A model generated the notes under the pieces. That model saw nothing but the letters and a program-made list of their open reading frames with translations, made no database searches and was not told the DNA's origin. From Alkanindiges illinoisensis DSM 15370 (GTDB lineage: Bacteria > Pseudomonadota > Gammaproteobacteria > Pseudomonadales > Moraxellaceae), in the NCBI RefSeq assembly GCF_000619845.1, contig NZ_JHUX01000009.1, forward strand, positions 60,001 through 92,000: a DNA stretch of 32,000 nucleotides, in the 5' to 3' direction. Of the stretch, positions 323 through 29,332 are shown one piece after another. Each line of letters begins with the position of its first letter. Within the stretch, counting starts at the first letter, position 1. Position numbers and translations under genes: made by a program.

Positions 323-985
323 CTATGGTTTTTTGGCTATCGTTTCAAGAGCGGTTTGATTGTCGCTTAGCCAAGAGGCTGTTATCTCACAACGAAATCT
401 CACCAGTTCTATTATTTTATGATAATCATCAGCTAATGCTCGATTAAAAATAGGTTCATGATGGGCAATTCGATTTCTCAAATATCGAATTTGATCAAGA
501 TACTGGTAAATCATTGTGCGTCGTTCTGTTATGGTTTTTGCTACATCCATATTGGGTAGTACGCTAGTGAGATAAGGAATCCATAGACGTTCATCATAAC
601 GTTGAGTAAACATTTTTTGCCAGAACACAAATTTAAGTTCCGGGATAACTTTCCCTGTAGCCTGAGTACTTCGTCGTGCATTCATCAGATCCCTGCGTGG
701 ACTGTACCCAATGCGCGGGTCGGGTAAGCTTCTTTCAAAAACTGTTGCCCAAGGCCACTGGGTTCCATAAACAGATTCTAAAGCAGCGGCAACAGCATTA
801 CGGATCACTACCTCACAAAGATGTAACGGCGTTAGTAACGCTCCGGACACTTGTGCATTCCATGCATAAAGGTGCAAAGCTGCCAGCTCATCAACATTTG
901 CTGTCCCAATGGCCGTTTCATAGGTTGCAATTCGCGCTGGAGAGATTGCTGTTTTTATGGCATTAATCATTGCTTGGTTTGACAT
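323..985 (-). CDS. Abi_2 (AbiD/AbiF-like) abortive-infection protein, HEPN-type RNase predicted
   Basis: 220-aa ORF. The C-terminal segment YLRNRIAHHEPIF carries the Rx4H HEPN motif in the form typical of Abi_2-family proteins. The N-terminal helix EVVIRNAVAAAL also fits the family. No Shine-Dalgarno is visible upstream of the ATG. Confidence 0.7.
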   Translation of the reverse strand: MSNQAMINAIKTAISPARIATYETAIGTANVDELAALHLYAWNAQVSGALLTPLHLCEVVIRNAVAAALESVYGTQWPWATVFERSLPDPRIGYSPRRDLMNARRSTQATGKVIPELKFVFWQKMFTQRYDERLWIPYLTSVLPNMDVAKTITERRTMIYQYLDQIRYLRNRIAHHEPIFNRALADDYHKIIELVRFRCEITASWLSDNQTALETIAKKP

Positions 986-3863: not shown

Positions 3864-4502
3864 TTAAAGCGTCTGATTAAACTTTAATAAAAGATAGAGA
3901 TTATTATAAGTCGGATAGGTTGCTGTGAGAGATGGAAAATAAAGTTTTTTAACTTCCTTGATCGCAGGCTGCAAAATAAACTGCTTGAGATTATCCACTC
4001 GGTGATAAGAGCTTAAATGTTCAATCTGAAACATGGCTAAAATTTCTGGAAGATTAAACTGCTGCATCTTTGCTCCAGGCTCAATGTATAAATATAAAAT
4101 CTTGGCCATTGGTGTATTTAAACGAGCCAGATTTTCAATCAGCTTACTATCAAAGGCCTGCTGAATTGCAGTCAGGTGCTCCTGTAGTACGCTACTTAAT
4201 CCAATACGCAACGTTAACTGATCTAGGCTGAGCTGATGATGGCTGAAGCAAAAAAATTTAATAAAGTGGGGATGCAGACGACTAGCACTAAAAAATAGCG
4301 GTTTGGTGGCCAGTGCATCAATCACTGGCCAGAGCTGATAAGTCGCCGCAAAGTGGCTATTGAGGTGATCCAGTAATTCAGCTGTAGAGAGAATAATCTG
4401 TGGTTGCAAGGCCTGCCGATGATTAACCAGCTCATGAATCAGTGCCTGCTCAGGCAGAGATAACAGAGAGAGTGCCAGGCAGATTTCATGCTCAATCTTC
4501 AT
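3864..4502 (-). CDS. Rep_3-like (RepB/pi-type) winged-helix protein, short form
   Basis: 212 aa. The N-terminal LSLPEQALIHELV resembles the Rep_3 WH1 start. The C-terminal SSYHRVDNLKQFILQPAIKEV resembles the conserved Rep_3 WH2 segment (Y-R-x-DNLK-x-x-VI-x-x-A-x-K-x-I) of Acinetobacter Rep proteins as I recall them. Confidence 0.5.
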   Translation of the reverse strand: MKIEHEICLALSLLSLPEQALIHELVNHRQALQPQIILSTAELLDHLNSHFAATYQLWPVIDALATKPLFFSASRLHPHFIKFFCFSHHQLSLDQLTLRIGLSSVLQEHLTAIQQAFDSKLIENLARLNTPMAKILYLYIEPGAKMQQFNLPEILAMFQIEHLSSYHRVDNLKQFILQPAIKEVKKLYFPSLTATYPTYNNLYLLLKFNQTL

Positions 4503-4597: not shown

Positions 4598-4963
4598 ATG
4601 CTTGAAAATCCCTTGATGCAAGAACAGATCCGCAAACGGTTTTCCAAACTTCGACCGTTTGAGCAGCAGTTGCTTAGAGTGATTATTCAAAAAGCCATTA
4701 CTCAAAATCAGCCGGCGGCTTTCTGGGTAGACCTATCCTTCACCACGGTACACCAGCTGATGGGATCACATTATCCTAAAGCACTGGCCGAGCAACAGAT
4801 TGTAAAATCTTTAGAGGCCTTATTATTTGCCCGGGGTTATTTTCATGCCCCAGATCACGCCAGCCTGGAATATCAATTTATCGGCGGCTATAAGATAAAC
4901 CCAGATTTCTCTATCCGGGTTTATCTTAATTCACTGATTCAACCTTATCTGGTGCAATTATAG
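4598..4963 (+). CDS. Rep_3 WH1-domain-only protein (truncated rep or stand-alone winged helix)
   Basis: 121 aa. LRPFEQQLLRVII..., ...ALLFARGYF... and ...IRVYLNSLIQPYLVQL parallel the Rep_3 N-terminal domain. The ORF stops where the WH1-WH2 linker would begin. Confidence 0.45.
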   Translation: MLENPLMQEQIRKRFSKLRPFEQQLLRVIIQKAITQNQPAAFWVDLSFTTVHQLMGSHYPKALAEQQIVKSLEALLFARGYFHAPDHASLEYQFIGGYKINPDFSIRVYLNSLIQPYLVQL

Positions 4964-4983: not shown

Positions 4984-5182
4984 CCTAAATATATGGGAAC
5001 ACCATAGGATAGATAAGATTTAGCAACTCACTTCCATACTATATCTCTCAATTAACCCGCTTTATTTATCGTCAACGATATTAATCAATCGTTATCGATA
5101 AAGCAGGGCAGAAAGCTAATGTTTGGATAGGCCTTAAGAAGGATGATAGTAGATACTTTTATGGTGTTCCCATATATTTAGG
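4984..5182. repeat. 199-bp element with perfect 23-bp terminal inverted repeats and a concentric internal palindrome (MITE-like)
   Basis: CCTAAATATATGGGAACACCATA at 4984-5006 is the exact reverse complement of 5160-5182. An imperfect palindrome at 5059-5104 (core AACGAT/ATCGTT) is centred within about 1 bp of the outer repeat centre. Flanks are TACTTCTCT and TACTGCTTT (7/9 identical). Confidence 0.6.
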
Positions 5183-6581
5183 TACTGCTTTGCCCATCAA
5201 GCCACCTTAATACCTTTTCATCATTCTGTGCTAATTGCCTAATAGATTGATGAAATGATTTCACCTTAAAATTGGTCTGGTAAAAACCTTCATTCACTGC
5301 CGCTGCTAAAAAATATGGGTTCATGAGTTCAGGATACTGTACGGTGAGCTGAGCTAATAGATTCATTTGATAGGCTTTAACTATAAGCTTTGCCATTTCA
5401 TTTTTAGGAATAGTGGCCAGATTACCCTGGGCTTTTTCAAGTCTTGCAAAAATATCAGTCTTTGTGGTTTGCCGGTAAAGTTCCATATCCTCAATCTTGC
5501 GTATCATTTGCATTTTTGCAGGCATGGTCTGCTTTATGGCTAATAAGGTAGCGACTTCTATTCGCCAACGGCTACTTTCAAGTGATTCGCTAAACAAACC
5601 TTTCCAAAGACGCTTTTTTGCAGAATCAGAGAGTAAGGGAACTAGTTCGGTTAAAATAGACTTGGCAGTTTGACTGGGTGTCATAAAAAACTGGCTTGCT
5701 GGTGAGCGTATTAATTCATAAATGATTCTAACAGTGTGCTGATAAAGCTCACGCTGGTTGTAGTTTCCCTGCATGATTTTTGCCTGTTGCAGCAACTGCG
5801 CTATATCACTGATTACGATGGGGATAGGGTCAGTAAAGACGGTTGCATAGGCCTGATAAAGCCTAGTGAGTGATTTATATTGTTCAAGCAGGGCCAAAAG
5901 CCTGGCCTGTACATCATGGAAATTAACATAATGGGGCTGACAAGAAGCACAGATTCTGGGTTTTCTGCTGGGACTCGCATCTAGTACCTGCCAGTAATGC
6001 AATGTGGTATCTGGCTGTTCATTGAGTAAGGTATCAGCAGATAATTCCACCCAGCGGTTAATACCTGATTTTTTGACAGAATCTACCCGATGTGAGTGAT
6101 ATACCTCAAACATCAAGAAAGGATTGGTTTTCTCGTATTCCTCAAACACAGCCACATCACCACGAAAGCTCGTATCAGGATAGTTATATTCACTAATGGC
6201 CTGATTGACACTGGCTGGCAAGGTATAGATAAACTGATGTTTCCCACAAAAATGGCAAGGGAAGTGAAGGCAAATCTGGTGATGTTCAGTAATGGCCAGA
6301 ACAATGCGCTGTTTACCCAGAATATGTTGCAATGACTCATTACTACAATTTCTATGTTCGACATGCCTAAAGTGATGTACACGTTCAGTGCCAGCAACCA
6401 CAATGAGTGGATGGCCACAATCCGGGTCAGGACAATAATAATGATGCTGTTGGCTTTCTGCTCGTCGTGCAACAGCCTGAGTAATTGATATGATTTTGCC
6501 CTGCTGATCCAATGCCGATCTAAACCAGCTGCTGATAGAAGTATTGGTTAGTGCTGTTATTGATTGATCCCTGTCCATCAT
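5178..6581 (-). CDS. CoiA-like Zn-ribbon / PD-(D/E)xK nuclease domain protein with a long helical C-terminal extension
   Basis: 467 aa. CPDPDCGHP...VHHFRH...C.NESLQH..GK, a second CHFCGK pair, then RGDVAVF...FLMFEVYHSH. This has the same order and spacing as the CoiA family (C-x-x-C...HFAH...ES..H...D...E-V-Q-x-S). About 270 aa of unassigned helical sequence follow. Confidence 0.6.
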   Translation of the reverse strand: MMDRDQSITALTNTSISSWFRSALDQQGKIISITQAVARRAESQQHHYYCPDPDCGHPLIVVAGTERVHHFRHVEHRNCSNESLQHILGKQRIVLAITEHHQICLHFPCHFCGKHQFIYTLPASVNQAISEYNYPDTSFRGDVAVFEEYEKTNPFLMFEVYHSHRVDSVKKSGINRWVELSADTLLNEQPDTTLHYWQVLDASPSRKPRICASCQPHYVNFHDVQARLLALLEQYKSLTRLYQAYATVFTDPIPIVISDIAQLLQQAKIMQGNYNQRELYQHTVRIIYELIRSPASQFFMTPSQTAKSILTELVPLLSDSAKKRLWKGLFSESLESSRWRIEVATLLAIKQTMPAKMQMIRKIEDMELYRQTTKTDIFARLEKAQGNLATIPKNEMAKLIVKAYQMNLLAQLTVQYPELMNPYFLAAAVNEGFYQTNFKVKSFHQSIRQLAQNDEKVLRWLDGQSST

Positions 6582-6851
6582 CTATTCCTGGTACAGTTTT
6601 ATTTTGAAATTTCTCAAGGTATTCTATTTAAGCATTCACCCATAAATCCTGGGATTTGCCCAAGCAATCTTTATAACTATCAAAAATAATGAATCATTAA
6701 GGTAAATCCAATCCTGATTCCCAATTACTTCAAGATTCATGGAGTTATGGCGACATTCTGCGTCGTAGCGCACAATTGTAACTGTTGCTTTTCTTAAAGG
6801 TTTAGCTCAGTCTTAATTGACTAATAAATAAGCGAAAAGGTAGATTTCATC

Positions 6852-7811
6852 ATGAATCCTTTTGATGATATTCCCAAGATTAATCATTGGTTAGATTTAG
6901 AAAACAGAGAAAAATTTTCAGCGTGTATTGATTTAAAGCAAATTAAAGAACCTCAACCCTTAAAAAAGGTCATTGCTGCCTACGAGTTGTCTCCCAAGGT
7001 CTATTGTGGGATTGCCAGTTGTCATACTGCTCACCATAAAGGATTTTTAGTTGAGCTATTTGATGGCTCGGAAACTATTGTCGGGCATTGCTGTGGCAAG
7101 AAATATTTTGGTCGTGATTTTACCGTTGAAAAAAACCGACTTACCAAACTTGCTACTGACAAGCAAAACTATGAAATCATTACTCGCTTTATCAAAAATC
7201 TGTCTGTTCATAAAAATGAATTTAATAATGTATTTAATGAAAATGAGCTTAACTGTGGCTTTAAGAAACTGATGCTAGCGGTCATTGATTTTAATACTGT
7301 CAGGACAAACATCAGTAGCCAGACCTTTAGTAATATTGGCTATGATGGAGAGGTATTCCAACTCGTCAGGAAGTCAGATAAGGATATAGAAATTGAGAGA
7401 GTTGCAGGACAAGGACAGTTGATTGAAACTCATCAAAAGCACATTATTGCAAAAATAAATCACTTTAACCTGCTGTTTCAAATTGATAAATTTTATCAAT
7501 TAAAGGATTATTTTTCTAATCTTTTCATTTTCTTTGAACGCCACGGACGAGGCTTTACCAGCAATCAGCTTAAACAGTATGGCAAGCTGGTCAAAGATTT
7601 TGATAATAAGCTCTATGAGATGAAAATATTAGCTAAGCAAGGTTCTAATTTATTGAGTAAAACCAATCTAGAGAAGTTGAATCTGGCAATAGGGCCTCAC
7701 AGAGTTTCCGAATTACGTTTGGTCAATGCTTTTATTAATCGGCAGGCTTATTGTTATCTAAACAGGCAAGCTTTAAATTTCATGAATAGTCACAAAATTT
7801 TGACATGGTGA
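6852..7811 (+). CDS. Hypothetical Cys/His-cluster protein with a coiled-coil-like C-terminal region
   Basis: 319 aa. C-x4-CH-x2-HH...GHCCGKKYFG cluster (aa ~52-85), then Lys/Glu/Asn-rich heptad-like sequence. Divergent from the CoiA-like gene across a 270-bp spacer. Confidence 0.55.
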   Translation: MNPFDDIPKINHWLDLENREKFSACIDLKQIKEPQPLKKVIAAYELSPKVYCGIASCHTAHHKGFLVELFDGSETIVGHCCGKKYFGRDFTVEKNRLTKLATDKQNYEIITRFIKNLSVHKNEFNNVFNENELNCGFKKLMLAVIDFNTVRTNISSQTFSNIGYDGEVFQLVRKSDKDIEIERVAGQGQLIETHQKHIIAKINHFNLLFQIDKFYQLKDYFSNLFIFFERHGRGFTSNQLKQYGKLVKDFDNKLYEMKILAKQGSNLLSKTNLEKLNLAIGPHRVSELRLVNAFINRQAYCYLNRQALNFMNSHKILTW

Positions 7812-7815
7812 TTTT

Positions 7816-8010
7816 ATGGCGATGATGGAATATACAATTGAGGGAATCACTCACAAGGTTGAATACGACGTATTTGATGATGAACTCATTGTCTATTTGC
7901 CGGATGGTACAACACGTACCACATGGCTTAGAGGTCTCACAATCAAAACTGCAATTAGGCCACACCTGATTTCTTATCTTAATGGCCAAAAAGTAAGGCA
8001 TGAGATGTAA
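7816..8010 (+). CDS. Small hypothetical protein (64 aa), translationally coupled to the previous gene
   Basis: ATG lies 4 nt after the upstream stop, with GGTGA 4 nt upstream. Composition is strand-rich and protein-like. The overlapping - strand ORF 7780-8001 looks like a shadow ORF. Confidence 0.4.
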   Translation: MAMMEYTIEGITHKVEYDVFDDELIVYLPDGTTRTTWLRGLTIKTAIRPHLISYLNGQKVRHEM

Positions 8011-8064
8011 ATCTTAAAACTCATTAAAATGTTAGATAAAAGTAAGCTTGTCGGAGCTATTGTC

Positions 8065-9363
8065 TTAATAAATCCGCCATACATCCTTCCAGCTCGTCAG
8101 GTAACTGGGTGACTTGTTGGCCTGTGTCATTGTCCAGTTCCGGTTTTTAAAGGTGCAGGAGCCAATGGCTATCGTATCCTTGCCAAATTTCTTGTTGATT
8201 TCATCCAGGGTAAAGGTCAGTAGTTTACGTTCATTGATTTGTTCCTGATCAGCTAACAGATCAGGAATAAACCTGGCTTCAGGTACGATATTCAGCAGCA
8301 TCACACCGGCTTTTTTATAACGCTGGCCAGATTTGAAAATTTGCTCTAACCCATACATGGCCGACTTCACTAAAAGCAGCCGGTCATCGGTGGCATGGCT
8401 TAATGTGACAGTGATATAGGGATTATAGTAAGGCTGTTCAAACCGGCTAGTTTTAATAGTGACACCAATGGTTGCACATAACAGTTTTTGGCTTCTTAGG
8501 CGATCAACGGCGCGTAGCATGAATAGGGTAATGGCTTCGCGCAGGTCATCAATTGCTGTCACCGGTGCACCAAATGACCGGCTGGAAATAATCTGCTTTT
8601 TATCCGGCACTACGTCTTCAATGGCCAGGCACGATACGCCTTGAAGCTCTAATACGGTACGCTCAGTCACAATGGAAAAATAGCGCCGGATCATGGTGTG
8701 ATCGGCCATCATCAAGTCCATGACTGATACGATAGACAGGGCATTCAGGCGTTTTTTGATTTGACGGCCGACGCCCCAGACTTCACCCACATCCACAGTT
8801 GATAGCAGGTTTTCCAGCAGGTAGGGGTCAGCGTCCAGAAAATTGCAGACACCCTCAAATAGCGGATTTTTCTTGGCCATGTGGTTGGCCAGTTTTGCCT
8901 GAGTTTTGCTGGAGCCAATCCCGATACAGCAGGGCAGGCCAATCCATTGCTTAATGCGCTGCCGCATTTGTTGCGCGTATTCTGTCAGGTCAAATAAGTG
9001 TTCATAAGCAGTCAGCTCAAGAAAACACTCATCAATCGAGTAGACTTCCTGTTCCTCTGGAGCAACAAACCCACCCAAAATACGCATAAAGCGTTGGGAC
9101 ATCGCGCCATACAAGGCATAGTTACTCGACATGACCACCACACCATGCTGCCGGATTAATGCCCTGATCTCAAAAACGGGTATACCCATTTTAATGCCCA
9201 GGGCTTTGGCTTCTTCGCTGCGGGCAACGACACAGCCGTCATTATTGGACAGGACAACGACCGGACGGCCGTTGAGGGTAGGATCAAACACACGTTCACA
9301 GCTCACATAGCAGTTATTCACGTCCACCAGGGCGAATATGCGGCTATGATCAGTCATGGCCAT
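8065..9363 (-). CDS. umuC: Y-family translesion DNA polymerase subunit UmuC
   Basis: 432 aa. N-terminus [17 protein letters not shown]...[15 protein letters not shown] is diagnostic for UmuC/ImpB. The start lies 1 nt from the umuD stop. Confidence 0.9.
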
Positions 9364-9364
9364 C

Positions 9365-10108
9365 TTACCGGTTAATCACTTTCTTGATGTTATAGGTGAC
9401 CACGCCAATAATGACGATGATTTGCCCTGGCTCTGGATAGATATTTTTAAAGTCCGGGTTTTCGGCCTTAAACCAGATCGGCTGCTGGCTGACTTCCCCA
9501 TGAAATTCTTGCAGGGCATCACTTAAGGACTTGCCTGCATTTTCCGGCCGGTCACAGTCATGCAGGCTATCCGGGTTAACCTCATCTGTTTTGGTGTCAT
9601 ATTCACACAGCATTAATCGCTTCATGGTGAACTTATTGTCAATCATGGCAATCACCACGTCCTTATGACGCGCTTCAATACTACGGTCAATCAGGATTTC
9701 ATCGCCCACGTCAAAGCCAGCATCACGCATGGACAAAGAACCTACCCGTCCAACGAAGGTCGCACTTTTGTTGCGGATTAGGTGCTCGTTTAAGTCCAGA
9801 ACATCTTCAATGTGGTCTTCAGCCGGGCTAGGGAAGCCTGCCGGTATTAGTTCCTGGGCAACGGGGATTTGGTAATAGGTTAGTGCCTGCACTGGCCGTA
9901 AAGCCAGCTCAGCATTTAAGTCATGGCTAGGCATGGGAAACGGCACAACAGCAGAGCCGGTATTATCCAGGGTTTGCTTTAGGAAGTTTTTCACTAAGGC
10001 CTTTTTGGACACCGGCACACGAATGACAGTTGTTTCTTCATCATACAGCGGCTTACGGCCTGAATTGGGACGTACACCACCATGCTTTCCAGTTTTAAGA
10101 TCGGTCAT
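9365..10108 (-). CDS. umuD: UmuD-like S24 self-cleaving peptidase with an N-terminal extension and an internal insertion
   Basis: Aligns to E. coli UmuD from [12 protein letters not shown] (cleavage site AG), through GSLSM (Ser nucleophile), to FTMKRL (Lys). The Met at 10108 was chosen over the ORF-track start at 10144; neither has a good RBS. Confidence 0.8.
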
Positions 10109-10310
10109 ATTATCTTTGGTTTTGTAACTAAACCAAAATAGCATACGCGATCATTGTTTTTAAAAGCAAATTAGAAATGTTGATATATGCGTTATATGAA
10201 TTGCTAATTGTTTAATGCTCTAAAGTCTAAAGCATCCGAAAATCTAAAAATTTATAGCAATGCCAGAAAGGAGCCAAGAAAGATTTCAATCATTATAAAT
10301 ATTCTACACC

Positions 10311-10619
10311 TTATTTTTTTGCTCTCAACTTTTGGATAAATAAATGAAAAACCAAAATTAAACCAAACCAGAATAAATAGTCTAAAAGGAAATAGTTCAG
10401 AAGAAATTCATCTGTATCCCAGAAAATAAATAAAATACTTATTTTATTACCCGGTGATGTGAAATCTCCATCAATTAAAAATACAAAAGGGAATCCGCCT
10501 ACAATTCTCTGTACTTCCCCAACTCTATCTACCACTATACGTTTAACAGGAATGTATCTCTCATAAAAGGCTTTGTTGCACAATAGCCTGATTAAGCTGA
10601 ATAGCATAATTGGGACCAT
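10311..10619 (-). CDS. Doubtful hypothetical ORF in an AT-rich junction region
   Basis: 102-aa ORF with a hydrophobic C-terminus. It overlaps the end of the truncated OMF reading frame and resembles no family. It may be a gene fragment. Confidence 0.2.
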   Translation of the reverse strand: MVPIMLFSLIRLLCNKAFYERYIPVKRIVVDRVGEVQRIVGGFPFVFLIDGDFTSPGNKISILFIFWDTDEFLLNYFLLDYLFWFGLILVFHLFIQKLRAKK

Positions 10620-10857
10620 CCAGGTCTTTTAGGCTGGCGTTGCCCAGATTATCTGCCTGTATGGCGATTTCCGGGTTAGCTAAACGGCCACTTTGTTGGA
10701 CTCTGAGATTATCAGTTTCATTTTGACGAATGAGGTACTGTAATTGTGGGTCTAATTGATACGCCTGCTGCTGGAGTTGCTGCAGAGACAGCTGAGCATA
10801 GGTAGGCAAAGGCGAAATTAGCCCAATCAGCATTAATGCTGTTGGTAGGGTGCGCAT
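10561..10857 (-). pseudogene. N-terminal remnant of a TolC-family outer-membrane efflux protein (CzcC/CusC-like)
   Basis: Signal peptide MRTLPTALMLIGLISPLPTYA, then LSLQQLQQQAYQLDPQLQ...NPEIAIQADN...YAIQLNQ, typical of an OMF N-terminus. The frame ends after about 98 aa where ELGGKR-type sequence is expected. AGGA lies 7 nt upstream of the ATG at 10857. Confidence 0.6.
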
Positions 10858-10939
10858 AATGATTCCTAAAGAGTAAAGCAAAAATCTCTAGTCATGACAA
10901 AAGTCATAACTGGTTTAGATGCTTAAACTTCAGGAATGC

Positions 10940-11413
10940 TCAATGACGAAGTACAACTGTGCGGGTCAGTATGGTTATTGTGTTTCTTACTGGTGTATCA
11001 AAAATGGGTAAGATGCCAATACACTTGGGGATAATATCTCGAAGTAAGATAAAAAAAACCCAGAGAAGTATTAGAGCAGACATTACTGTGATCATTTCAA
11101 ACTGCAATGCTACTTTTAGCATATATTTGATGAAATCATCGCTGGGCAGTTTTAAAAGATGATCAGGGGTTTCATGCAAGATAGTCGCATGATGAGCATC
11201 ATGGTTAACTGACTTTTGACTATGCACATCATCTGTAGTGTGATGCACTATCCATGAGACGACATTGCCAGAATCTTGCCCCGTTGCCTGATGAGCTTGA
11301 TCAAAATTTAAAATGATAACGGGCAACCAGGACAAAACACCCATAGCCACCAAAAGATAGGCAGCTATGATTAGCTTTAATAAGCTTTTGGCGTATTTTC
11401 GGAGAGGCTGCAT
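10940..11413 (-). CDS. His-rich membrane protein of unknown function
   Basis: 157 aa. N-terminal and C-terminal hydrophobic segments flank HHTTDDVHSQKSVNHDAHHATILHETPDH. A metal-related role is inferred from context only. Confidence 0.5.
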   Translation of the reverse strand: MQPLRKYAKSLLKLIIAAYLLVAMGVLSWLPVIILNFDQAHQATGQDSGNVVSWIVHHTTDDVHSQKSVNHDAHHATILHETPDHLLKLPSDDFIKYMLKVALQFEMITVMSALILLWVFFILLRDIIPKCIGILPIFDTPVRNTITILTRTVVLRH

Positions 11414-11602
11414 ATCAAATTGATGAGTAAGAAAGCTCGTGGTGTAATTTAGCCTAATATCATAACGAAGGGAACAGTTCTTAATTATAAATACTGAGAT
11501 AGTCTGAACTAAAGGCGAGCCAGCTTAGCGATCAGCTGAGCCTGCATGAATTAAATTATACACTCTACCATTGAAATTCATTACTGGGCTTAAGCGTACG
11601 TT

Positions 11603-11640
11603 AAAAAGCCGACTCTCGTAGCGTAAAGAGTCGGCTTTTT
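11603..11640. terminator. Bidirectional rho-independent terminator after the DUF4396-MCO gene
   Basis: AAAAAGCCGACTCT-(10-nt loop)-AGAGTCGGCTTTTT, with a 9-bp GC-rich stem at 11608-11616/11627-11635. Confidence 0.75.
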
Positions 11641-11694
11641 AGATGCTTAACCGTTCAGAACAGAGAGAAATATTTTAGCTCTGAAATATGAGTG

Positions 11695-13698
11695 TTAAGT
11701 CGTGGGGTCACCTTCTACTTCAATATGCATCATCAAACCACCGCCACCATCATGTTCAACATTATTGTTGGTAGTATGATGCAGAATATGGCAATGGATC
11801 ATCCATTTACCTGGTTTAAGTGCTGTCCAGATGACATCATAGCGCTGACCAGGACCTACATTAATGGTATCCGCTTTGAAACGGGCAGAGGGAGGAAGGG
11901 TCTCGCCATCACGTGCCACCACCACAAACGGGCCACCGTGGATGTGCATAGGATGGATAAAACCACTACTAGAGCCAATAAAGCGGACTTTAAGGGTTTC
12001 ACCTACTTTCATTTTGATGGTATCTGTTGAGGGATAAGCACGACCATTGATAGTAAAGTAATTGGGCATGCCTCCTTCCATTGGCATAGCTGGGTAAGTT
12101 AAACCATCACGCACCAGCCACTCCTGGAGTTGCAGGGTATACTCATGGTCTGCTGGAATTGTATCAGCCGGATTTGCCGGGTCAATGATTAATGCGCCAT
12201 ATAATCCTAAGGTTTGCTGCCGGTCGACATGGTCGTGCGAGTGATAAAAATAAGTGCCAGACTGTACCGCAGTAAACTCATAGCGATAAATATCCCCGTT
12301 CTTGATGGGTTCCTGGGTGACGTGAGCCGCACCATCCATCACGTTGGGCAGGACCAAGCCATGCCAGTGTACAGTGGTGGTTTCGGGCAGGCGATTTGTC
12401 ACATTAATCCGGACACGGTCGCCCTGACGAAAGCGTAGGGTTGGTCCTGGCACCTGGCCATTAAAGGCATAAGCATTTACAAATGTTTTAGGAAGAATCT
12501 GCCAGCGGATGACCGAAGTATCCAGATCAAATACCTTAACGCCATTCTCCAGACGCGGCTCCAGAATATGCGCACCGCGCTGACTTAAATCGTATTTTGC
12601 CGACACATCCCGCGGATCGACCGCTGCCATATCCCGCATGGCTTCAGCTGAGGTTTCCTGCGTCATTATCATGCCAGGTGGCATGATAATCCCACCGACT
12701 TCTTCTGCTGATAGCCGTAAATTAAAGAATGCTGCTGGTAAAGTCATACCAGCGGCCAGAAGAAAAAGGCTAAAAAATGTAACGGCAGTAAGCTGCGCCC
12801 GAGTGACCGAAGGTGCGCCATGACCTGTATGATGCTCTCCGTGTTGTCCAGCATGTTGACTGTTAGTATGTGAGTGCGCTGGCGCCTTACCATCCTTAGC
12901 TTGGGAGCTAGTATGATCACTAGGTTGCTCTGCTAAATCATGGTTCATTTGCGCCATATCACCATGTCCATGGCTTCCCTGATGCGAAGCATGAGATGAA
13001 GAATGGTTATGTTCTCCGCTATCTGAAGAATCTGGACGAACCGTCATAAGGCCATGCTTCATGCCGCGTGAAACCATCCAGACATTCACTGGATAGGCCA
13101 GCGCGAAACCAGCGATGATACCAATGGACATAACCACCCAGAACAGTGGCTCTCCAGGCCACATGGCACGCATGTCGCGCCCCATCATTAAATAAACCAT
13201 GACTGGTGCCATACCGGCCATCATGCAGTTCATAGAAATTAGCTCTGGGAGGAAGCTACGCTTTACGTTTTCAAGATAACTGCCGCCCATCATTTTGCGC
13301 ATAAACAGCGCCTGAAAAATAAGTAGGCCGAACAAGAAACCGGCAGTATACTCAACGATCAGGTCGACCCACATCGATAGGCCAAGCATTGCGGTGATAA
13401 CTGCTGCGACGATAATTCCCGTAGCATCACCTGCAACACAATGCACGGTGGAGCCAACACCCTGTTTCCATAATGGTTTTACAAATTCTTCATGGGTGCC
13501 AGGTGCAGGTTCTTTGTCTGCCATCACATATAACAGCAAGCCAATTGGACCCATGTATAAGGTCACCAGCACAAAACCCCATTTCATTACGGCAGGCTCA
13601 GGATTGCCTCTGAATTGATCCCAGGCAACATAGGCTGCTGAAAGCACGGCGATAACTAGCCAGGCGTAGACAAAAATATCAATGGGTTGAATTAACAT
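11695..13698 (-). CDS. DUF4396 membrane domain fused to a two-domain multicopper oxidase
   Basis: 667 aa. The N-terminal ~215 aa are polytopic and contain GSTVHCVAGDATGII (DUF4396-like HC-x-AG-D). A His-rich linker follows (GEHNHSSSHASHQGSHGHGD...HGEHHTGHG), then one TM segment, then ~330 aa with HWHG, YHSHDH, HPMHIHG and HCHILHH copper-ligand motifs. Confidence 0.8.
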   Translation of the reverse strand: MLIQPIDIFVYAWLVIAVLSAAYVAWDQFRGNPEPAVMKWGFVLVTLYMGPIGLLLYVMADKEPAPGTHEEFVKPLWKQGVGSTVHCVAGDATGIIVAAVITAMLGLSMWVDLIVEYTAGFLFGLLIFQALFMRKMMGGSYLENVKRSFLPELISMNCMMAGMAPVMVYLMMGRDMRAMWPGEPLFWVVMSIGIIAGFALAYPVNVWMVSRGMKHGLMTVRPDSSDSGEHNHSSSHASHQGSHGHGDMAQMNHDLAEQPSDHTSSQAKDGKAPAHSHTNSQHAGQHGEHHTGHGAPSVTRAQLTAVTFFSLFLLAAGMTLPAAFFNLRLSAEEVGGIIMPPGMIMTQETSAEAMRDMAAVDPRDVSAKYDLSQRGAHILEPRLENGVKVFDLDTSVIRWQILPKTFVNAYAFNGQVPGPTLRFRQGDRVRINVTNRLPETTTVHWHGLVLPNVMDGAAHVTQEPIKNGDIYRYEFTAVQSGTYFYHSHDHVDRQQTLGLYGALIIDPANPADTIPADHEYTLQLQEWLVRDGLTYPAMPMEGGMPNYFTINGRAYPSTDTIKMKVGETLKVRFIGSSSGFIHPMHIHGGPFVVVARDGETLPPSARFKADTINVGPGQRYDVIWTALKPGKWMIHCHILHHTTNNNVEHDGGGGLMMHIEVEGDPTT

Positions 13699-13779
13699 TA
13701 GATTATTCCTTGTTTTCGTTTTAGCTTAAAACTTGTATCCCTTCAAAGTCGCTCCATAGAAGGTATTGCGTTTCAGAAG

Positions 13780-14064
13780 CTACCTTAAAGGTATTAAACT
13801 AGGTTTCGGTATTGAATAAATAATAGATTCCTGTGGTTTAGTATTGGGATTATCGTTTTGTAGATCATGATGATGGTCATGAGTTTTCTGCGCTTTCTCC
13901 TGAGCGGATGTCGCTGAATCATGATCGGATACCAGTTCCATTTCATCATCTGACATGGCCTGCATATCTTGGGCTAAGAGTTTTTGCTCAGCCCAAACAG
14001 GTGCGTTAAGAAAAATCAATAAAACAAGTCCTTTTGTTAAATTATTCATATTTTGACCTTTCAT
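13780..14064 (-). CDS. Small secreted acidic/His-rich protein
   Basis: 94 aa with a signal peptide (LVLLIFLNAPVWA) and KTHDHHHD. Its start overlaps the copD stop by 4 nt (ATGA coupling). Confidence 0.5.
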   Translation of the reverse strand: MKGQNMNNLTKGLVLLIFLNAPVWAEQKLLAQDMQAMSDDEMELVSDHDSATSAQEKAQKTHDHHHDLQNDNPNTKPQESIIYSIPKPSLIPLR

Positions 14065-29304: not shown

Positions 29305-29332
29305 ATTTAACATAATTAGTGTTATACGACAT
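29305..29332 (-). other. pdif / XerC-XerD recombination site
   Basis: The reverse complement reads ATGTCGTATAA-CACTAA-TTATGTTAAAT. The XerD arm is identical to the Acinetobacter dif/pdif consensus TTATGTTAAAT. The XerC arm matches ATTTCGTATAA at 10/11 positions, and the spacer is 6 bp. Confidence 0.75.

Follow-up and report, generated by a model that had tools for sequence, protein, structure and literature searches.

A predicted zinc-ribbon nuclease of the CoiA superfamily with a helical C-terminal domain in an accessory locus of Moraxellaceae mobile DNA

A locus of three genes was analyzed in a stretch of 32,000 nucleotides from Alkanindiges illinoisensis DSM 15370 (contig NZ_JHUX01000009.1, positions 60,001 to 92,000), referred to here as the window, in whose own numbering positions are given unless another locus is named. 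The first gene (5178 to 6581, minus strand) encodes a protein of 467 amino acids (aa) that, judging from its sequence, is a zinc-ribbon nuclease of the CoiA superfamily; it belongs to a sister family of the true CoiA proteins and carries a rare helical C-terminal domain, and its activity is predicted. Across a divergent intergenic spacer of 270 bp (6582 to 6851) lie the gene for a 319-aa protein (6852 to 7811, plus strand), which by its profile match is a full-length member of the PHROGs family phrog_7003, of uncharacterized function, and the gene for a conserved 64-aa protein (7816 to 8010, plus strand). With moderate confidence, we read the locus as a small mosaic cassette of accessory genes on Moraxellaceae mobile DNA, in which the first two genes most likely serve in mobile-element or phage conflict, each acting alone.

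The three open reading frames (ORFs) are located as the original prediction had them, and all are under purifying selection, with ratios of nonsynonymous to synonymous substitutions (dN/dS) of 0.10 to 0.30. The 467-aa gene, which is supported by its ORF, a Pfam match above threshold and a structural model, showed ratios of 0.26 and 0.30 in comparison with L001 and L019, respectively, two further copies of the locus. All motifs previously listed for its product were found, namely, C50-PDPD-C55, H70-F-R-H73, C79-SNES-LQ-H86, C109-HF-C112, G-D142-V, and F-E159-VYHSH. Two separate alignments, of 71 and 75 distant homologues, were used to assess their conservation. C50, C55, H70, H73, C79, E82, H86, K90, C109, and C112 were invariant or conserved in at least 90% of the sequences in both, and the same holds for E131, D142, E159, H164, K170, E179, C211, and C214. 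D142, E159, and E179 are invariant in the 71-sequence alignment, where E82, K90, E131, H164, and K170 are conserved to at least 95%, and D142, E159, and H164 are conserved to 90 to 100% in the independent set of 75. As judged by these alignments, the motifs are not a product of chance.

The Pfam family CoiA_N (PF25164) was identified at residues 43 to 80 of the 467-aa protein with 30.4 bits, as compared to a gathering score of 26.3, and it was matched by 139 of the 146 homologues that were scanned. The nuclease model CoiA_nuc (PF06054) had no match in the protein at E values up to 1; a single one of the 146 homologues, P0136, carries it, and this protein has an E-I-Q motif of the kind described for true CoiA. 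An hhalign comparison of the family profile with P0136 resulted in a probability of 95% and an E value of 3e-8 over residues 45 to 166; in this alignment, D142 is paired with the D of P0136 and E159 with the E of its E-I-Q motif, whereas the CxxC hairpin has no counterpart in P0136. Because of this alignment, the core of the CoiA_nuc protein and that of the 467-aa protein are considered homologous, even though the latter falls outside the family model. The active-site signature of the 467-aa protein reads D142-V...E159-V-Y, the family consensus being E-[VI]-x-x-[ST]-H-x(5)-K, and the E-x-Q motif of CoiA is not present. NCBIfam and PADLOC returned nothing for this protein, PHROGs returned nothing significant, and neither did sequence or profile searches of the PDB, in which the D/E motif matched the BsaXI nuclease domain weakly (E value, 0.22).

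A model generated with AlphaFold2 (AF2) from the 71-sequence alignment had a mean predicted local distance difference test score (pLDDT) of 79, with values above 85 for residues 20 to 330, of about 75 for residues 331 to 350, and below 65 for most of residues 351 to 467. The N-terminal region (residues ~20 to 215; 5937 to 6524, minus strand), as delineated by the conserved residues, the order of elements in the model and the hhalign match to P0136, starts with a zinc ribbon formed by two cysteines and two histidines (C2H2; C50, C55, H70, and H73). It continues with helix α1 at residues 84 to 98 (the region of E82, H86, and K90), a CxxC hairpin with C109 and C112, strands at residues 125 to 133 (E131), 140 to 147 (D142), and 156 to 161 (E159), a helix at residues 168 to 173 with K170, to which H164 is assigned, a strand at residues 177 to 181 (E179), and a second CxxC pair (C211 and C214). 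The modeled order of helix, three strands, helix, and strand, predicted with a pLDDT above 85, is that of PD-(D/E)xK nucleases, and both model and alignment place the acidic residues D142 and E159 on strands 2 and 3, as in the PD-(D/E)xK superfamily. Foldseek searches of viral models matched the first ~200 residues to uncharacterized proteins of Ectocarpus virus, giant viruses, and phages, with E values down to 5e-9.

The C-terminal domain (residues ~216 to 467; 5181 to 5936, minus strand) was characterized by AF2, Foldseek, and its relatives. The helical extension proposed for this part of the protein is borne out, since the model contains solely helices from residue ~215 to 467, with a confidence that declines after residue ~330. 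A Foldseek search of the PDB with the full model retrieved only nonsignificant alpha-solenoid and helical-repeat matches, none of them at an E value up to 0.001. A word-indexed search of 5.8 billion proteins retrieved three close clusters (88 to 94% identity), one of them truncated. An exhaustive HMMER search of 1.84 billion representatives resulted in 227 relatives at E values up to 0.001, nearly all of which cover residues ~20 to 230 only. Very few relatives are of full or near full length, namely, P0006 (466 aa, 33% identity) and P0008 (503 aa, ~30% identity over residues 23 to 461). The helical domain is conserved only in these two proteins and, in part, in P0007 and P0010, and most family members possess Cys-rich C termini in its place. 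No near-identical DNA or protein was found on known plasmids or phages for either the 467-aa or the 64-aa gene; tblastn searches of PLSDB gave no match for the 467-aa protein, and neither did a metagenome scan with the alignment of its close subfamily. At L010, the gene of P0010 (2707 to 3972) has a C5 DNA methyltransferase gene at a distance of 1.6 kb and a resolvase gene in its vicinity, and other relatives are placed among unannotated or housekeeping genes.

The closest characterized point of reference is CoiA itself. CoiA was shown to be a structure-specific PD-(D/E)xK endonuclease that resolves the transformation displacement loop (D-loop) with RadA; its D95A and E105A substitutions abolish function, and it has been reported to be restricted to Bacillota, with Acinetobacter using YraN/ComM (bioRxiv 10.1101/2024.02.06.579203). 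Its active site has been described as a PD-E-x-Q variant with a conserved Arg (PMC1189080). Like CoiA (YjbF), the 467-aa protein has an N-terminal C2H2 zinc ribbon, its D on strand 2, its E on strand 3, and a long C-terminal region without a recognizable signature. It differs in lacking PF06054, in having the motif E-V-Y...S-H...K instead of E-x-Q, and in its extra CxxC pairs (C109 and C112; C211 and C214), neither of which the aligned CoiA_nuc protein possesses. Whereas CoiA, a competence-induced protein, has been reported from Bacillota only, the 467-aa protein is encoded on a Moraxellaceae mobile element, by a gene that is rare and accessory rather than core. The description of the 467-aa protein as a CoiA-like nuclease thus stands with regard to the CoiA_N domain and the homologous core, but not with regard to PF06054, the E-x-Q motif, and the host range.

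The 467-aa protein is also linked to CoiA-like genes of plasmids. Family members are named "competence protein CoiA family protein" in RefSeq, and ORF62 of the Vibrio plasmid pVA1 has been annotated as CoiA-like. When the family member P0013 served as the tblastn query, 814 plasmid records of PLSDB were matched, mostly enterobacterial ones, and 672 of them are conjugative; three of the 814 records were inspected. On IncHI2-type plasmids, the family gene overlaps the gene of a UvrD-like "ATP-dependent helicase" by 4 nucleotides (nt), and its product matches the family profile with an E value of 1.5e-32 and has the signature D-V...E-I-x-x-T-H...K. The same pairing exists in reverse order on a Deinococcus plasmid; the pairs on the two kinds of plasmid are located at L026, 5986 to 9008; L025, 6118 to 9008; and L028, 1841 to 4119. 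In addition, 1 of 75 scanned relatives contains UvrD-helicase domains within the same protein. On a Marinobacter plasmid, the family gene is present alone, beside a toxin-antitoxin pair. The CoiA-like genes of IncHI2, Deinococcus, Marinobacter, and Massilia plasmids belong to the same sequence family as the 467-aa gene, and all are plasmid borne; their products are ~245 to 340 aa long and have Cys-rich C termini, whereas the 467-aa protein possesses a 250-aa helical domain, has no helicase neighbor, and shares less than 35% identity with them. Overall, the sister family of CoiA is large and uncharacterized; plasmids frequently carry its members, and these often have a UvrD-like helicase as a partner or fusion.

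These links support the main alternative to our reading, namely, that the 467-aa protein is the element's own DNA-processing or recombination enzyme, acting on D-loops, flaps, or further branched intermediates that arise when a plasmid is established, repaired, or recombined, as a plasmid counterpart of the CoiA/RadA and YraN/ComM pairs and not as a defense protein. Homology with a D-loop resolvase, the helicase overlaps and the fusion among its relatives, the number of conjugative plasmids that carry a family member, and the position of the gene beside umuDC and a Rep-like gene are all consistent with such a role, but the locus itself contains no helicase gene and the 467-aa gene is very rare and patchy in its distribution. 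Furthermore, one related locus (L002) has lost the nuclease core yet kept flanking genes, which is unlike a backbone function, and pairs of a nuclease and a UvrD-like helicase are also typical of defense systems such as Gabija. We therefore regard the DNA-processing role as rather unlikely. The CoiA-type zinc ribbon also occurs in PD-lambda-4/Avs8, a validated antiphage system composed of the STAND nucleoside triphosphatase (NTPase) PD-lambda-4A and of PD-lambda-4B, in which the ribbon is located. This ribbon is shared with the 467-aa protein, but the locus has no NTPase gene and no match to the PADLOC PD-Lambda-4 model at E values up to 1, and only residues 1 to 66 of PD-lambda-4B are CoiA-like.

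The 319-aa protein matches phrog_7003 with an E value of 1.8e-37, its residues 8 to 296 aligning to positions 11 to 306 of the 309 in the profile. The Cys/His cluster initially read as C52-GIAS-C57-H-TA-H61-H...H79-C-C81-G is present, but among 14 diverse phrog_7003 members only C52, C57, H61, and C81 (C-x4-C-x3-H...C) are invariant, so the site is of the CCHC type and smaller than the cluster first read. The dN/dS ratio of this gene was 0.17 over codons 1 to 186. No Pfam, PADLOC, or PDB match was found for the protein, NCBIfam matches were far below threshold, and PADLOC, at E values up to 1, returned nothing for 13 phrog_7003 members. Beyond the cluster the protein is predicted to be helical; its AF2 model was poor (pLDDT of 47), and the Foldseek matches obtained with it were discarded for this reason.

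In its final part the window copy departs from three other copies. An extra T at 7748/7749 (plus strand) is present in the window only, as compared to L019, L001, and L006, a contig of Alkanindiges hydrocarboniclasticus H1. In these three copies, the ORF ends with RQAIVI and a stop codon at 302 aa, corresponding to ~7759 to 7761 of the window. The extra T, which may be genuine or may stem from the misreading of a TT run, shifts the frame; this generates a 17-aa tail and leaves a gap of 4 nt to the 64-aa ORF, as compared to ~54 nt in the other copies. The translational coupling of the two ORFs that had been proposed from this 4-nt gap is an artifact of the single added base and is not conserved. 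Other phrog_7003 members are ~303 to 320 aa long and without the 17-aa tail, and the 64-aa gene that follows the window copy is not seen with them.

Like the window gene, other phrog_7003 members are single genes among hypothetical genes of mobile elements. At seven prophage loci, the gene is always a single gene on the strand opposite to that of its neighbors. In phi467, vB_EcoS-611R1, L017, and L018, it has the Q antiterminator gene on one side and the lysis or stx genes on the other; in Pseudomonas D14S and Atpa001 and in Klebsiella phi12.2, it is flanked by the early-left operon and the gene of the cI repressor. Both are classic accessory (moron) positions. Plasmids of Burkholderia, Pseudomonas, and Vibrio likewise carry members, with hypothetical genes around them.

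The block common to the window and L001 (5188 to 7992; 2.8 kb), as established by blastn, the gap list, and the genes of L001, is colinear with 88.6% identity and contains the three genes and nothing else; the spacer is 89% identical. The flanks of L001 differ from those of the window: one of them holds OloB/OloA as well as a 95-aa gene, the other an ABC-F gene and housekeeping genes. A complete Olokun system (148 to 3587 of L001; PADLOC E values of 7e-176 for OloB and 2e-81 for OloA) lies directly beside the cassette copy. Since the homology covers exactly the three genes and the flanks differ, the trio must have moved as a block at least once, landing beside a known defense system. The phrog_7003 gene of L001 is a pseudogene, interrupted by a stop at codon 187 and by a frameshift, with the nuclease and 64-aa genes intact. 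In L002 (3228 to 3423), an internal deletion corresponding to 6002 to 6370 of the window removes the nuclease core (residues ~71 to 193). Upstream of window position 6563, DUF305, Fer2, HMA, and MerR genes have taken the place of the window sequence; the 319- and 64-aa partners are absent, and the downstream 121-, 212-, and 351-aa genes are kept. Because L002 has lost the core and everything upstream of 6563 and has kept the downstream genes, the linkage is considered mosaic, with breakpoints at 5188, 6563, and 7992 among the window, L001, and L002.

The original prediction combined these genes in a two- or three-component defense or antiplasmid module, a view in which the 467-aa protein would be the nuclease effector, the phrog_7003 protein a sensor or scaffold, and the 64-aa protein a regulator. 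It agrees with the exact correspondence of the shared block to the three genes, with the purifying selection on each of them, with the Olokun neighbor of L001, and with the divergent arrangement that the window, L019, and L001 have in common. The neighborhood comparison named at the outset gave the opposite result. No CoiA_N-family gene was found within about 4 to 8 kb of phrog_7003 at any of 58 independent loci (12 from phages, plasmids, and metagenomes and 46 from IMG/VR, the latter amounting to 491 kb), and neither a phrog_7003 nor a 64-aa homologue was found near the divergent relatives of the 467-aa protein at five loci (L007 to L010 and L020). Genes that might have been analogous partners beside divergent relatives (326 and 80 aa in L009; 264 aa in L010) were rejected, having no CCHC site, no similarity, and no Pfam or PADLOC match. 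The trio is together only in copies that are 88 to 94% identical at the protein level, so that its co-occurrence reflects shared ancestry of one DNA segment. Moreover, L001 has kept its nuclease gene intact although the phrog_7003 gene has decayed, the 4-nt coupling results from the T specific to the window, and PADLOC-DB 2.0, at E values up to 1, had no match for any of the three proteins. A joint system of the three genes is therefore unlikely.

The 64-aa ORF is a real gene, given its dN/dS ratios of 0.17 and 0.10 in comparison with L001 and L019, respectively. It is intact in the window, L019, and L001, that is, wherever the nuclease gene is intact. No homologue of its product was found in PLSDB, at the 46 IMG/VR phrog_7003 loci, or in the neighborhoods of divergent 467-aa relatives, and NCBIfam had nothing for it; the 64-aa protein is, as far as these searches reach, a conserved orphan. 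The joint conservation of the two genes, and the absence of the partner genes from L002 where the nuclease core is deleted, would fit a toxin-antitoxin-like addiction function, in which a nuclease toxin is held in check by the 64-aa (or the 319-aa) protein and stabilizes the cassette. But the genes are neither cotranscribed nor adjacent, the 64-aa gene being on the other strand at ~1.2 kb from the nuclease start, divergent nuclease relatives are without such a partner, the 319-aa gene decays without loss of the nuclease, and neither Pfam nor PADLOC revealed a match to a toxin-antitoxin family. Such an addiction function is considered highly improbable. As for the 319-aa protein as the antitoxin, this candidate was ruled out by the pseudogene beside the intact nuclease gene in L001. 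A further proposal is that the 467-aa protein, as a CoiA counterpart encoded by a mobile element, acts on intermediates of recombination or entry of incoming DNA (D-loops of transformation or conjugation) in naturally competent Moraxellaceae, which would allow a plasmid or island to manipulate or block the uptake of rival DNA by the host, with the 64-aa protein as its inhibitor or regulator. We give it a slim chance of being correct; if true, the helicase-coupled relatives would form a third nuclease-helicase pair beside CoiA/RadA and YraN/ComM.

According to the favored reading of independent accessory genes, the 467-aa protein would be a CoiA-superfamily endonuclease that depends on metal ions to cut DNA. 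Its C2H2 zinc ribbon and a second knuckle of the Cys4 type would position DNA on the PD-(D/E)xK core, where D142 on strand 2 and E159 on strand 3, aided by E82/E131 and by a Lys or His at a shifted position (K90, K170, or H164), would coordinate Mg2+ for cleavage of the phosphodiester backbone. With CoiA as a guide, the enzyme most likely attacks branched or single-stranded DNA rather than a particular duplex sequence. The helical domain, which is specific to this lineage, probably replaces the helicase partner or the Cys-rich tail of the relatives, as a module for regulation or partner binding. The 319-aa (normally 302-aa) protein would be an independent zinc-binding helical protein of phrog_7003. 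We infer for both genes, each acting alone, most likely an exclusion or defense role. This assignment to mobile-element or phage conflict is based on the rarity of the 467-aa gene, the mosaic linkage, the loss of the nuclease core in L002, the distribution on plasmids and in viruses, and the defense-type neighbors: one copy adjoins Olokun and the window has a gene resembling PD-T4-5/AbiD at a distance of 4 kb, with the other relatives among unannotated or housekeeping genes. The moron positions of phrog_7003 genes and the CoiA-type ribbon of PD-lambda-4/Avs8 were counted in its favor as well.

Several points weigh against this reading. Nuclease activity in the sister family is predicted from sequence, and E159-V-Y lacks the usual Lys of an E-x-K motif, which makes activity dependent on the shifted Lys or His. 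The Foldseek search of the PDB, which provided no significant match for the core, was made with the whole model as the query, in which the helical domain dominates. None of the PADLOC models matched any of the three proteins. The divergent relatives with a readable context amount to a small sample of five loci, the exact match of the L001 block to the trio implies joint movement at least once, and every copy with an intact nuclease gene also has an intact 64-aa gene. These last two observations leave room for some functional link, such as regulation or inhibition of the nuclease by the 64-aa protein.

The surroundings of the locus are plasmid-like, as was anticipated. The window DNA is of the Acinetobacter-plasmid type, with copper-resistance genes, one pdif site, and a degenerate Rep3-like gene; the copper-resistance region is ~90% identical to many Acinetobacter plasmids, and window positions 6059 to 13802 share 98.8 to 99.2% identity with two contigs of A. 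hydrocarboniclasticus H1 (Moraxellaceae). The umuDC genes (8065 to 10144) adjoin the three-gene locus. The spacer is AT rich, as described before, with a G+C content of 33.7% as compared to 41.2% for the whole window. The frequency of promoter-like hexamers in the spacer was not above that in shuffled sequence, promoter and terminator scans around the locus performed no better than on shuffled sequence, and Rfam matched no RNA family in the window.

Downstream of the 467-aa gene, a 212-aa protein (3864 to 4502, minus strand) matches Rep3_C with 22.2 bits, just over the threshold, and Rep3_N below the threshold. In both L002 and L019, this gene and a 121-aa orphan (4598 to 4963, plus strand) accompany the 3' portion of the 467-aa gene, and the two possibly constitute a degenerate replication module. 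Between them and the locus lies a 199-bp element (4984 to 5182), detected by a repeat search, that is bounded by perfect 23-nt inverted repeats (4984 to 5006 and 5160 to 5182) with 153 nt between them; the stop codon of the 467-aa gene falls within the reach of the right arm. No further copies of the repeat were found in the window, and the element had no match in PLSDB. Because the L001 homology stops at 5188 and the L001 version of the 467-aa protein is 19 aa longer, an insertion resembling a miniature inverted-repeat transposable element may have clipped the 3' end of the gene. Another gene of the window, 4 kb from the locus, encodes a 220-aa protein (323 to 985, minus strand) with part-length matches to the PADLOC models PD-T4-5 (E value, 3e-17) and AbiD (E value, 8e-7); it is a possible abortive-infection-type gene, perhaps truncated. 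The sole good pdif-like XerC/D site of the window (29305 to 29332) has one mismatch to the Acinetobacter consensus, is situated beside a gene for a 457-aa protein with transposase-type helix-turn-helix domains, and is unrelated to the cassette boundaries. Mobility of the cassette by the pdif-module route was ruled out, with no XerC/D site near 5188, 7992, or the boundaries in L001.

The locus itself is of modest interest, as a three-part system is unsupported and its second gene is an ordinary prophage or plasmid gene. CoiA was recently shown to be a transformation D-loop resolvase and was reported to be confined to Bacillota. The sister family, in which the zinc ribbon is the same and the nuclease core homologous, is widespread on plasmids outside this phylum, often coupled or fused to a UvrD-like helicase; the window copy represents a rare architectural variant of it, with a helical C-terminal domain and without a helicase. 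If this family cuts branched DNA, plasmids would carry a nuclease-helicase function, in either defense or DNA processing, that parallels the chromosomal pairs of transformation.

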